Source: Escherichia coli (GTDB lineage: Bacteria > Pseudomonadota > Gammaproteobacteria > Enterobacterales > Enterobacteriaceae). From it: a stretch of 64,000 bases of DNA. The stretch lies in the NCBI RefSeq assembly GCF_003334785.1, contig NZ_QOWV01000005.1; one strand, given 5' to 3'. How positions within the stretch are numbered: position 1 is the first letter of the stretch; each line of letters opens with the position of its first letter. The position numbers are program-made. Below are positions 12,001-27,000 of this stretch, piece by piece.

Positions 12001-15000
12001 CTGTTCACCAATGGCGGTGATCAGGCTGTCTACAAGCAGTGTTACTGTTTCATTGGTTTCAACCGGACGACGACGACCTTTCTCATCCGGTTCGCCAAGC
12101 GACATAACGCGCAAGGTTAAGGTGCCATCAGCATCGAAACGTTCCGGATTATTCAGGAAACGGAACTCTACGCCGTCGTGCAACGCTTCTTCATACTCTT
12201 CGCGCCATGCGGGCATCTCTTGTAGTGAACGACGGTAAACGATCGTTGCTTTTTCTACGCCTGGAACGCGTAACGCCGCACGAGCGCAGTCCATTGCGGT
12301 GTTACCCGCCCCGACAACGACCACATGTTTGCCCAGCTTGAGCGCTGTACCCTTGTTGTATTCACGCAGGAAGGGGAGTGATTTCCAGACATTTTGGTTG
12401 TCGCCCGCCAGTTTCACACCGCTATTTTTATCAGTGCCGGTGGCAATCAGAACATAGTGGAAGCCCTGATTTTTTAACTGCTCAATGGTTAAATCGGGTG
12501 AGCAGCCATACTCAAATTTCACGCCGTGAGCGGCAACAAAATCGATATCGTGCTGAATTAACTCTGCAGGAATACGGAACTGAGGAATGATATTTTTCAC
12601 CACGCCGCCCGCATTGGCTTCGCGTTCAAACAGCGTAACCGGATGGCCCGCTCTGGCAAGGAAGTAACCTGCTGCCAGACCCGCCGGACCTGCACCAATC
12701 ACGGCAACCGGATGGCGTGAACCAGAACCGGCTGGTTTGTGCCAGCGTTGCTTATATTCATCCCAACCTTTTTCCAGCGCGACTTTTTTCAGTTCGCGGA
12801 TATTCAGCGCACTGTCGTAATCCAGGCGGGTACAGTTGTATTGGCACTGGTGATCGCAAATATGACCGGTAATGGCGGGCAGAGCGTTGCGTTGGTAGAT
12901 GAGTTCCAGCGCGTCGGCATAGCGGTGTTCGCCAAGCAGACGGATGTATTCCGGAATATCTTGCTTGATAGCGCAGGCAGTAACACAGGGGGCAACGTAG
13001 CAGTCGGTCAGCGGCAGGTCTTCTGCCACTTCAATACGCTCTTCTGGCTTCCAGTGTTTCTGGGTGTATTCCATGGTTAACGCATCTGCTGCCAGCCTGT
13101 TCAGTCGTTCGACGTCAACATGGTCAAGTCCCCAGGCGTCGGAGCCTTCCAGCTCGCGCATGCAGGCACTTAAGCGCAGATAGCCGCCAGGTTTCAGCAG
13201 GTCGGTTGCCATAGTAATAGGGCGAATACCTGTATCAAAAATATCGCGGATAGTCAGCTGACTGGCACCACCGGAATAAGAAATGGGCAGTTTGCCGTCA
13301 AAGGCGCGAGAGAGAACTGCTGCAACATTGATGGAGAGCGGGAACAGCGCACGGCCTGACATATACATCTCTTCACCAGGCAGTGCGCCTTTATTGTTGA
13401 TGGTGCCGAGAGTGTTAGTCAGTTTTACGCCAAAGCCGAGTGATTTTTCTTTTGCCAGTGCCATCAGGCGTTCCAGCATTTCCAGTGCTTGCGTCAGCTT
13501 GAGGTCGTGATCAAATGACTCTTCTTTTAAGCCTATGTAACCGAAACCGCAGACATCGAGGATCTCACGAACACGCGCGTACCCCAGTAAGGTCGGGTTA
13601 AGTTTCACAAAGGTGTTGAGCCCTTTTTCTTCCAGCATGTAGCGGCAAATGGCTTCGATTTCATGCGGAGGACAGCCGTGCATGGTGGAGAGGGTGACGC
13701 CATGCACCATACTGGTGGGGATGCGAGCGGGTAAGGCTTGCAAGCTTTCGCGTTTTTCCTGCAATCCGTGGCGAGCTAAAAATGCGTCATCCTGGAGTAA
13801 TTTATTCAGCGTATCGCGATATTGAGCGAATTTCGGATGGTCAGATGCGTCCATCATATTGTCGATGAACTGTTGCATCGGCGGTTGCTTAATACCTTCG
13901 AGGTTGTAACCGACGCTCATATTAAAGATGAACGATTTACCGGAATCAGAAGGCTGGAACATCGCTTCGAGAAGGTGCAGGGCAAACCAGGCTTTGAGGT
14001 ATTCATCCCAGGCTTTAAGCAGGGTAAATTCGGTAGACCATTCGGTGTTAAAGCACTCGTCTTCGGCATCGATACAGGGCTTTTCCAGCTCCAGGCGGTC
14101 AAGAATTTGGACGGTTTTTAGTTCGATGAAGCGTCCGCCAGTCAGCCAGGAAGTGACAATATTTTGCGCGAGCTGCGTGTGCGGGCCAGCGGCAGGGCCG
14201 ACGGGAGTGGCACAGGTTTCACCGAAGACGCTAACAGTTTTACCTTTTACAGGTGAGTAAAACTGTTGCTCGGGAATACCAAAGATTGAGCGTTGTTGTT
14301 GGTATTCATCAAATATGCGCGTCAAAAGTTCCTCAAACGGAATGGGACGCATAATATCCCCCATAACCCTCTCCTTAGCTTATACAGATATCATTGAGTG
14401 ACCGGTGTTGAGAAATCCGGTGGTTTAGGGGGATAGAGCAACAATCGCACCACTCTTGCCAGGTTTGGCGGGAAATATAAAAAAATGTGAGGCGGCTCGA
14501 AACTTAAGGGCTTTTTGTGAATGAACTCACAGGTGCTAAATGAGAATTAAAATCACTCCTGAAAATTATTATTGCCAGCCCATTTATCAATTTTTCTCTT
14601 TTCTCAAAATCAGTGATTCCTTATCATTATGATAATGAGTGCCGGAAGGATTAAATATTTGAACGCAATCGTTTAACTACGTTTTCTAAATTTCAGTATA
14701 CCTTTCCTTCGCTGTAATAAAGTCGTCCGGAGTATCAATATCTAAAATTATTTCTGCATTTTCTATTTCGACGGAATAATGATCTCCCATAAGGAGTGCC
14801 TGACGCATATTGGTGACATTGGGTCGTTGGATTGCCTGCATCAGGCATGGTTTTGACACTAAAATCGGATGGCCGGGGATGCCATTATGGAGTGGCAGTA
14901 TTGCGCCATCATTTCGTAACGACCAGATTTTTCTAAAAATATCGATGGTGAGGGTTGGCATGTCACCGTGGGTGAGAAAACAATGTTCTGTTTGCACTGC

Positions 15001-24000: not shown

Positions 24001-27000
24001 TGACAGGCAAAGTGGTTTATTTCACTGTGACTTGCCAAAGTGATTGGTGTTTTCACAGCTATACCTGGGACTAACAATAAGTGTGCCAGAATTATCCGCG
24101 CGGCTGCAAAAGACTAATTTGACGGATAATGTGTGGGGTTGATCACAAATTGATGCCAGCTTCTGGTTGTTTGTAAAATACGAAAACGTTTGGCTTTTTT
24201 TATCGCGTTATTTATTTGCTGCTAAGTATCAGAAATAAGATAAAGGGGCAGGCTATCTCTCTTCAGTTTGATAAACTCACCGCCGTAATTCTCATATTGA
24301 TATAGAAATGTGATATCTCTTCCATAATTTCATTAGAAAATGATAAAAATCTTATGTTTTTATCAAAGCCAATTTCGCCTGAGTTAATATCATCATGATC
24401 TGTGAACCATCAACGTCTTCAATGATCGACTTTTAAGTAAGTCTGGAAGGTAAAGCTATGGAGCTTGCTACTACGCAGTCAGTATTGATGCAAATTCAAC
24501 CGACAATTCAGCGTTTTGCCAGAATGCTTGCCAGCGTTTTGCAGCTTGAGGTTGAGATCGTTGATGAAAACTTGTGTCGCGTTGCCGGAACGGGCGCGTA
24601 TGGGAAGTTTCTTGGTCGCCAGTTGAGCGGCAACTCACGCCTGCTCCGCCACGTCCTGGAAACGAAAACTGAAAAAGTTGTGACACAGTCTCGCTTCGAT
24701 CCCCTTTGCGAAGGTTGCGATAGTAAAGAAAATTGCCGCGAAAAAGCATTTCTGGGTACGCCTGTCATTTTACAGGATCGTTGTGTTGGGGTGATAAGTT
24801 TGATTGCCGTTACCCACGAGCAACAAGAGCATATCAGTGATAATTTACGCGAATTTTCTGATTATGTTCGCCATATATCCACCATTTTTGTTTCGAAACT
24901 TCTGGAGGATCAGGGGCCAGGAGATAACATCAGTAAAATATTTGCGACCATGATCGATAATATGGATCAGGGCGTATTAGTTGTAGATGATGAAAATCGG
25001 GTTCAGTTTGTTAATCAGACTGCCTTAAAAACACTTGGTGTTGTGCAAAATAATATTATTGGGAAACCTATCCGTTTCAGACCATTAACATTTGAGAGTA
25101 ATTTTACCCATGGACATATGCAGCATATTGTTTCATGGGACGATAAAAGTGAATTAATCATTGGTCAATTGCATAACATTCAGGGCCGACAATTATTTTT
25201 AATGGCGTTTCACCAATCGCATACCAGTTTTTCTGTAGCAAATGCACCTGATGAACCGCATATTGAACAATTGGTTGGCGAGTGCCGTGTTATGCGGCAA
25301 TTAAAACGACTCATTAGCCGTATTGCACCCAGCCCATCCAGCGTTATGGTGGTTGGTGAAAGCGGCACGGGTAAAGAAGTCGTCGCCCGTGCAATCCATA
25401 AGTTGAGCGGAAGACGGAATAAACCCTTTATTGCTATCAACTGTGCCGCGATTCCGGAGCAGCTTCTGGAGAGCGAACTGTTCGGTTATGTTAAAGGTGC
25501 ATTTACTGGCGCTTCTGCCAACGGTAAAACAGGGTTGATTCAGGCGGCGAATACGGGCACGCTGTTTCTCGATGAAATAGGTGATATGCCATTAATGTTG
25601 CAGGCTAAATTACTGCGCGCTATTGAGGCACGTGAAATTCTGCCGATTGGTGCCAGTAGCCCAATACAAGTCGACATTCGCATCATTTCTGCAACTAATC
25701 AGAATTTGGCCCAGTTCATTGCCGAAGGTAAATTCCGCGAAGATCTCTTCTACCGACTTAATGTTATCCCGATAACTCTGCCACCGCTGCGTGAACGTCA
25801 GGAAGATATTGAACTATTGGTGCATTACTTTTTACATCTGCATACCCGTCGTCTGGGATCGGTTTATCCTGGCATTGCTCCCGATGTCGTCGAAATATTG
25901 CGTAAGCATCGTTGGCCCGGAAACCTGCGCGAGTTAAGCAATTTGATGGAATATCTGGTTAACGTGGTTCCTTCAGGTGAAGTTATCGACAGCACGCTAT
26001 TGCCGCCAAATCTGCTGAATAATGGCACAACGGAGCAAAGTGATGTAACAGAGGTCAGTGAGGCGCACCTGTCACTCGATGATGCGGGCGGCACGGCGCT
26101 GGAGGAGATGGAAAAGCAAATGATCCGCGAGGCGCTTTCACGTCATAACAGCAAGAAGCAAGTTGCTGATGAACTGGGCATCGGCATTGCTACGCTCTAT
26201 CGCAAGATTAAGAAATATGAGTTGTTAAACACATAACCTCAGTGAATCCGGCCTGAATTCAGGCCGGATATCCTTTTACTTCGTTTTCTCGCAATCCAGA
26301 ACTGTATTTACAATCATCTGATACCCCGTGCAGCGACAAAGATTTCCCGCCAGTCCGCGACGAATTTCCGTAATGGTTAATGGCTTCTCGCGTGGTTTCG
26401 CCAGCATTGCCGTGGTAGCCATAATCAGGCCAGGCGTACAAAACCCGCACTGCACTGCGCCGGATTTCGCATAAGCCTGCTGAACATGAGAAAGTTTTCC
26501 GCCTTTCGCTTCACCTTCCAGCGTGCGGATCTCTTTTCCTTCAGCCCAGGCGGCAAGGTATAAGCAACTGTCTATTGCTGTGCCGTCGACCAACACCGTA
26601 CAGGCACCACATTCACCCACGCAGCACCCTTGTTTGACACTTAGCAGTCCTTGTTCGCGGAGTAATTCCGAGAGCGGCGTGCCTGGTGCGGCGTGAAGCT
26701 GAAAAGGCATCCCGTTAATGGTGCATTCGATGGTAATTGTTTCGCTGTGATTCATTGCAATTTTCCCCCCGCCGCGGCGACGGCTTCGCTAATCACTTTT
26801 TTGGTCATCGTCTGGATGAGATGCAGACGAAACTCTTTACTGGCCCGCCATGAAGAACGCGGGGCGACATCTTGCAGGACAGATTCGCTGATAGCTTCCA
26901 GCGTTTGCAGGTTTAATGGCGCATTTTGTGCAGTCTGTTCGGCATGTTGGCAGCGAATCGGCGTTGGCGCGGCAACACCAAATGCCAGGCGTAATTCGCT

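Follow-up and report, generated by a model that had tools for sequence, protein, structure and literature searches.

Which promoters drive the genes for anaerobic urate degradation in Escherichia coli, and which activator turns them on? We analysed a stretch of 64,000 nucleotides (64 kb) of the E. coli chromosome (contig NZ_QOWV01000005.1), here called the window, that contains the urate-degradation cluster. The ygfK-ssnA-ygfM-xdhD and ygeW-ygeX-ygeY-hyuA-yqeA operons are the two main operons of this anaerobic (reductive) urate/purine degradation cluster. Upstream of ygfK and ygeW, a sequence-only reading of the window had noted two imperfect motifs resembling sigma-54 promoters. Based on the analysis reported here, we suggest, with a probability of roughly 0.85, that both motifs are genuine sigma-54 (RpoN) promoters of these operons, here PygfK and PygeW, and that the operons belong to one sigma-54/YgeV regulon with a palindromic enhancer and control by CRP. 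Both sites are correct but already published, and the idea of one regulon is the current published working model; the finding is not new because the identical 17-mers were listed in a 2015 study (PMC4591121) and the literature already describes a putative YgeV regulon. What is added here is a map of the control regions, with the register of PygfK, a candidate YgeV palindrome and CRP-type sites, and the enhancer/CRP architecture is a modest new lead.

The -24/-12 element of PygfK, GTGGTGCGATTGTTGCT, is on the minus strand at 14437-14453, and that of PygeW, CTGGCACACTTATTGTT, is on the minus strand at 24073-24089. Read on the minus strand, 14437-14452 gives TGGTGCGATTGTTGCT, the 3' end of which is 72 nt ahead of the ygfK ATG (14364), and the 3' end of the ygeW motif is 90 nt ahead of the ygeW ATG (23982). 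These are exactly the strings from which the sequence-only reading had started, and the defects that it had seen in them are real. In the ygfK motif, TGGTGC-N5-TTGC, the GG and GC doublets are both present and TGGTGC replaces TGGCAC at -24; in the ygeW motif, TGGCAC-N5-TTGT, T replaces C at -12 while the GG and the G at -12 are intact. In both motifs, the register from GG to G(C/T) is the canonical 12 nt. The predicted starts are near 14426 for PygfK and near 24062 for PygeW, giving leaders of 62 nt and 80 nt, respectively.

The sequence-only reading had proposed to score the motifs with a sigma-54 position weight matrix (PWM). We built one from 38 intergenic-sense sites identified by chromatin immunoprecipitation followed by sequencing (ChIP-seq; PMC4591121 Table 1), from which xdhA, ygeW, ygfK and ygfT were excluded to avoid circularity. 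Among the ~128,000 positions of the window on both strands, the ygeW motif ranks 1 with 15.8 bits and the ygfK motif ranks 6 with 11.7 bits (11.74), both above background; with a 130-site matrix, the ranks in the window are 6 and 3, respectively. In a first-order Markov sequence of 5 Mb, scores like these have per-position P values of 5.8e-6 (ygeW) and 5.5e-5 (ygfK), and the chance hits expected on the correct strand per spacer amount to 0.003 and 0.018, respectively. Compared with the known sites in a leave-one-out analysis, the ygeW motif is average (58th percentile) and the ygfK motif is low but within range (18th percentile).

Both elements are conserved. In a set of 80 loci with 10-kb flanks, taking one genome per species carrying YgeW, the best PWM match in the ygeW spacer is the orthologous motif, (C/T/G)TGGCA(C/T)NNTTATTG(T/A/G)N, in ~44 species, including Citrobacter, Klebsiella, Edwardsiella, Serratia, Hafnia, Morganella, Aeromonas, Photobacterium and some Betaproteobacteria. 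The distance from this motif to the ATG is mostly 65-109 nt, and the second-best match per spacer scores near or below 5 bits. The ygfK motif is kept as xTGG(T/C)(G/C)(C/T)GATTGTTGCT in 21 of the 21 other species that have ygfK in the locus, at 57-83 nt from the ATG. The invariant alignment columns are TGG and TTGTTGCT for ygfK and TGGCA...TTG for ygeW; around them, the spacers could not be aligned. In the homologous spacers of other species, each of the two elements has no other strong PWM match beside it, and this pattern spans Enterobacterales, Aeromonas and Photobacterium and, for ygeW, some Betaproteobacteria. The -12 C of PygeW is replaced almost throughout the ~44 species, by T in most Enterobacterales, by A in Aeromonas, Serratia and Betaproteobacteria, and by G in Photobacterium. 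In loci with YgeV, a C never occurs at this position, an observation that reflects few independent changes and is, therefore, statistically not compelling.

Both sites are occupied by sigma-54 in vivo. A ChIP-seq study with motifs called by MEME lists both identical 17-mers (Bonocora et al. 2015, PLoS Genet, PMC4591121 Table 1): OS30 at ygeW (CTGGCACACTTATTGTT) with a fold above threshold (FAT) of 3 and a predicted start 80 nt from the ATG, and OS31 at ygfK (GTGGTGCGATTGTTGCT) with a FAT of 26 and a predicted start 62 nt from the ATG, the latter promoter being marked as ‘predicted’ in EcoCyc. Both distances are reproduced exactly from the window coordinates. OS30 and OS31 are, in other words, the same objects as our two motifs, with identical 17-mers, genes and distances, and the study gives binding only. 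It also lists OS29 at xdhA (CTGGCGTAAATCTTGCC, FAT 11), IS34 inside yqeC (TGAGCACGAACCTTGCA, FAT 7), OS32 at ygfT, which is outside the window, and glnA (FAT 21). To call the ygfK motif weaker, as the sequence-only reading did, is therefore misleading because its occupancy in vivo exceeds those of xdhA and glnA. The sigma-54 holoenzyme at both sites represents closed complexes formed under non-inducing conditions, and the T at -12 may account for the weak closed-complex occupancy of PygeW despite its perfect -24 box.

In vitro, the RpoN holoenzyme binds the ygeV/ygeW spacer in genomic SELEX (gSELEX; 53-55%; Shimada et al. 2021, PMC8743547). The in-vivo and in-vitro rankings are in conflict: ygfK is high and ygeW low in ChIP-seq, whereas gSELEX lists the ygeV/ygeW spacer without ygfK. 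At the level of mRNA, ygfK is 2.4-fold down in an rpoN deletion and 2.1-fold up on sigma-54 induction, and xdhA likewise goes down and up (Zhao et al. 2010, PMC2831329). The operons are co-expressed in the ‘YgeV iModulon’, with YgeV as the proposed activator (Lamoureux et al. 2023, PMC10602906); this iModulon covers the same operons as those considered here, but was derived from transcriptomes only and without cis-elements. Beside this co-expression, a report on ygfT is indirect evidence for YgeV dependence. PWM rank, footprinting, ChIP-seq, gSELEX and the response of ygfK mRNA to rpoN all support sigma-54 promoters for ygfK and ygeW. For xdhA and ygeW, earlier predictions are reportedly due to Reitzer and Schneider in 2001, whom others cite for them.

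Open-complex formation at these promoters would require an enhancer-binding ATPase, and the likeliest one is YgeV, encoded beside ygeW. The ygeV open reading frame (ORF; 24458-26236, plus strand) is divergent from ygeW, and its product has the Pfam domains PAS, Sigma54_activat (E = 2e-70), AAA_lid_14 and HTH_8, a Fis-type helix-turn-helix; judging by this domain set, YgeV is a bacterial enhancer-binding protein (bEBP). Upstream of both promoters, we found an exact match to the 13-bp palindrome T(A/C)TCA-N3-TGA(T/G)A, namely TATCATAATGATA at 14622-14634, with its centre at -202 relative to the predicted PygfK start, and TATCAATATGAGA at 24290-24302, with its centre at -234 relative to the predicted PygeW start; this second centre is 162 nt away from the ygeV ATG. 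Weaker half-site clusters at 24303-24315 and 24261-24273 flank the PygeW copy. The window has four exact matches, all inside the cluster, where 0.23 would be expected by chance; in 100 shuffles, a count of four was never reached. The third, TCTCAATGTGAGA at 16012-16024 in yqeC, is conserved. The fourth, at 22446-22458 in the coding sequence of ygeX, is rejected as an element because its synonymous positions vary freely across species; we treat this copy as a by-product of coding and use it as an internal negative control.

The combination of sigma-54 element and palindrome recurs at three further places. The first is PxdhA, the third promoter meant by the sequence-only reading, with its element CTGGCGTAAATCTTGCC at 29994-30010 (minus strand) and near-palindromes at 30129-30141 (-152) and 30108-30120 (-131). 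The second is the promoter for yqeB inside yqeC (TGAGCACGAACCTTGCA, 15768-15784, plus strand), which site-directed mutation has shown to be a working yqeB promoter (PMC4591121). The third is the ygfT/uacT spacer just outside the window, in which E. coli 300709 has an exact copy of TATCAATATGAGA (L081:2536-2548). Because this layout recurs at xdhA, yqeB and ygfT/uacT, the cluster would behave as one sigma-54/YgeV regulon. The proposal of a regulon of three operons around ygeV is thus upheld in substance, while its count of sites was too low: there are at least five, at xdhA, ygeW, yqeC (internal, for yqeB), ygfK and ygfT.

Across species, the palindrome is present without mismatch upstream of every ygeW promoter in the YgeV-carrying loci (34/34), with its centre mostly at -195 to -248. 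With 0-1 mismatch, it is found in all 22 ygfK spacers (E. coli and 21 species) at -160 to -203 and upstream of every xdhA promoter at -129 to -152, the E. coli xdhA copy having one mismatch. Ahead of yqeB, the palindrome is conserved ~150-190 nt from the gene, i.e. ~220 bp downstream of the yqeC-internal promoter. We also scored 79 loci for three features: YgeV, counted as an orthologue from 50% identity upwards; a sigma-54 motif scoring 12 bits or more; and the palindrome without mismatch. The 34 loci with YgeV all have the other two features as well (34/34), and among the 45 loci without YgeV, 40 have neither motif nor palindrome. From its information content, ~17 chance matches to the palindrome are expected per genome, and the palindrome sequences had no match in the literature among open-access texts. 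We lean slightly towards the view that this 13-bp palindrome is a previously undescribed YgeV enhancer, or upstream activating sequence (UAS), and that together with a CRP-type site between it and the promoter it forms a common module at xdhA, ygeW, yqeB, ygfK and ygfT/uacT. In this model, YgeV would bind T(A/C)TCA-N3-TGA(T/G)A and neighbouring half-sites ~200-235 bp upstream and contact the polymerase by DNA looping, while CRP bound between palindrome and promoter would add catabolite control and perhaps bend the DNA for looping.

Several points weigh against the model of sigma-54 promoters under the control of YgeV. The ChIP-seq study speaks of ‘binding sites’ rather than promoters, and many of its 135 sites may never fire; occupancy at ygeW is low, with a FAT of 3 (PMC4591121). 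The ygfK site is not listed among the RpoN gSELEX peaks (PMC8743547), and a massively parallel reporter study of 2026 reports no consistent footprints for the YgeV iModulon. Induction of the yqeC-internal promoter was seen under nitrogen limitation, a hint that NtrC or a different activator may be involved (PMC4591121). The palindrome, at -200 to -235, is farther upstream than most enhancer sites. Finally, the co-occurrence of the palindrome with ygeV is confounded by phylogeny in that both are present in Proteobacteria and both are absent from Bacteroidota, Riflebacteria and similar groups.

The induction of the yqeC-internal promoter by nitrogen limitation is also the starting point for an alternative that we consider unlikely, in which the promoters are real, the activator is a bEBP other than YgeV, e.g. 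NtrC acting under nitrogen limitation, and the palindrome binds some other factor. The palindrome is AT-rich and by eye loosely resembles Fur-type repeats. However, all of the 34 loci that have motif and palindrome carry ygeV in divergent orientation to ygeW, and the palindrome is present at all promoters of the YgeV iModulon, while the only match elsewhere in the window is the non-conserved coding match. Moreover, a full NtrC-type site (TGCACC-N5-GGTGCA) was not seen when the spacers were read by eye. At yqeB, the conserved palindrome downstream of the promoter suggests that YgeV, rather than NtrC, acts from a downstream enhancer.

Both spacers have CRP-type sites. A perfect TGTGA-N6-TCACA site, TGTGAGTTCATTCACA, is on the minus strand at 14516-14531, with its centre at -97.5 from the predicted PygfK start; it has 0-1 mismatch at -97.5/-98.5 in 16 of 22 ygfK spacers, and two mismatches or no site in the other six. 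Closer to PygfK, the conserved block TTCGAGCCGCCTCACA (14486-14501, minus strand) has an invariant TCACA half-site and is centred at -67.5, and an equivalent block is present at -67.5 of PxdhA. The ygeW spacer has a CRP-like site with one mismatch, TGTGATCAACCCCACA (24132-24147, minus strand), the centre of which is at -77.5 relative to the predicted PygeW start; with 1-2 mismatches, it recurs at approximately -76 to -78 in 24 of 35 spacers, among them most of those from Enterobacterales and Aeromonas. The centres at ygfK and ygeW differ by 20 bp, i.e. approximately two helical turns. A 2025 preprint remarks that the ygeV-ygeW spacer has a native Crp site and that glucose represses urate degradation. 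Together with this remark, the sites point to a putative role of CRP at both PygfK and PygeW.

In a second alternative, the two sigma-54 sites are bound by the holoenzyme as ‘biological noise’ while the operons are transcribed from other promoters, e.g. CRP-dependent sigma-70 promoters. The CRP-type sites themselves, the engineering work that took the Crp site as a native control element, the low occupancy at ygeW and the ChIP-seq sites that may never fire all speak for this possibility. Yet in 21-44 species, both the bases of the sigma-54 elements and their distance to the ATG are preserved while the spacer drifts, a scan of both spacers for sigma-70 promoters gave nothing plausible on the gene strand, with counts at chance level, ygfK mRNA depends on rpoN, and the bEBP gene is always adjacent. 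We therefore regard noise binding as quite improbable, and retain PygfK and PygeW as sigma-54 promoters with CRP as a putative additional regulator.

For PygfK, a different register has been drawn. Zhao et al. placed the element 9 nt upstream, at 14446-14462 on the minus strand (CTGGCAAGAGTGGTGCG, TGGCAA-N5-GTGC; PMC2831329 Table 2), and in E. coli this overlapping register scores nearly as well, with 11.35 bits (range 11.0-11.4) versus 11.74 bits. In the 21 other species, by contrast, the homologous position of the upstream register scores between -3.5 and -37 bits without exception, while the downstream register scores 11.3-16.9 bits in every species; MEME, run on the ChIP-seq peaks, also picked the downstream register (PMC4591121). 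The upstream register is, therefore, rejected as specific to E. coli and not conserved, and it is very improbable that it represents the functional element; as far as sequence comparison can tell, conservation settles the register of PygfK as 14437-14453. That the two motifs are chance matches without function, as their deviation from the consensus in one box each and a ygfK score in the lowest fifth of known sites might suggest, is already refuted by the 0.003-0.018 hits expected per spacer, the deep conservation and the ChIP-seq occupancy.

The architecture proposed for PygfK and PygeW has a known counterpart. The catabolic prpBCDE operon is transcribed with sigma-54, the gene for its bEBP, PrpR, is divergent from it, and it depends on cyclic AMP (cAMP)-CRP. 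The CRP-type sites suggest the same architecture for PygfK and PygeW, where the role of CRP is predicted from sequence. Similarly to PygeW, the pspA and pspG promoters of E. coli have the consensus -24 box TGGCAC and a T for C at -12 (TTGT); they differ from PygeW in their activator, PspF, and in their physiology, and PygeW is without the -12 C in ~44 species. In Clostridiales, the sigma-54 regulon of DioR covers homologues of dpaL(ygeX), ygeW-ygfK-ssnA-ygeY, yqeB, yqeC-ygfJ and xdhC; this regulon is under bEBP control like the cluster described here, but belongs to another phylum and relies on a different member of the regulator family (PMC6615313).

The pathway encoded by the ygeW and ygfK operons, anaerobic urate/purine degradation by gut bacteria, was solved recently and is relevant for gout and for the engineering of probiotics. 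Control by sigma-54 would explain why these operons are silent in ordinary cultures and why strains have been re-engineered with foreign promoters. The palindrome module is conserved from Enterobacterales to Aeromonas, Photobacterium and some Betaproteobacteria. If correct, it would delimit the YgeV regulon to the base pair and account for the repression of urate degradation by glucose.

Some further observations concern the other promoters of the cluster. Across species, the yqeC-internal motif is kept as xxxGCA(C/T)GAACCTTGCA and its -24 GG is often missing (TGAGCA in E. coli, TTTGCA in Aeromonas), and TCTCA-N3-TGAGA, ~220 bp downstream of this promoter, is within a long leader. In species without yqeC and mocA (loci L005, L006, L010-L013, L015 and L022), yqeB and ygfK are divergent neighbours with one palindrome between their sigma-54 motifs and a second one, TCTCAAACTGAGA, just downstream of the yqeB promoter; in these species, one enhancer may serve both directions. 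In the ygfT/uacT spacer (L081:2308-2742), the palindrome is located between the published ygfT site, TATGCCCGTTTATTGCA (minus strand), and a sigma-54-like motif directed towards uacT, CTGGCACTCCACGAGCA (L081:2658-2674, 6.5 bits), which has a CRP-like site, TGTGATTGCCTCCGCA, at approximately -68 and may represent a sixth promoter of the regulon.

In the leaders, RNAalifold on 19 species found a hairpin ACCGG...CCGGT ahead of ygfK (14401-14421, minus strand) with 5 pairs, 4 of them with compensatory changes, and -4.9 kcal/mol. We do not claim this hairpin as an element, as it has only 5 bp and weak covariation. For the ygeW leader, RNAalifold gave no consensus structure on what was a poor alignment. 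An Rfam scan of the whole window returned only OmrA, OmrB and one tRNA, and no family in either leader; the OmrA and OmrB small RNAs (60733-61016, plus strand) and the tRNA gene (31187-31257, plus strand) are ordinary features unrelated to the sigma-54 motifs. Other strong PWM matches in the window are CTGGCACGACTGGCGCA in ssnA (10509-10525, minus strand, 13.1 bits), CTGGCGCTGGAATTGCT at 59461-59477 (plus strand, 13.0 bits) and, near 33240, two convergent matches that overlap (33228-33257), none of which is in the high-stringency sigma-54 ChIP-seq list.

Gene calls in the window are ORFs, with names taken from the RefSeq annotation of E. coli 300709, which is 100% identical over a 501-base sample (14200-14700). 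Downstream of PygfK, xdhD-ygfM-ssnA-ygfK occupies 6238-14364 on the minus strand, followed by mocA (14686-15264, minus strand) and yqeC-yqeB (15367-17810, plus strand). Downstream of PygeW, yqeA-hyuA-ygeY-ygeX-ygeW occupies 17851-23982 on the minus strand, with syntenic homologues in related loci, and xdhCBA follows ygeV at 26276-29938 on the minus strand. The centres of the PygfK and PygeW motifs (14445 and 24081) are 9636 bp apart here versus 9816 bp in K-12 coordinates (PMC4591121 Table 1), so that the interval from ygfK to ygeW in this strain contains a length difference of ~180 bp relative to K-12.

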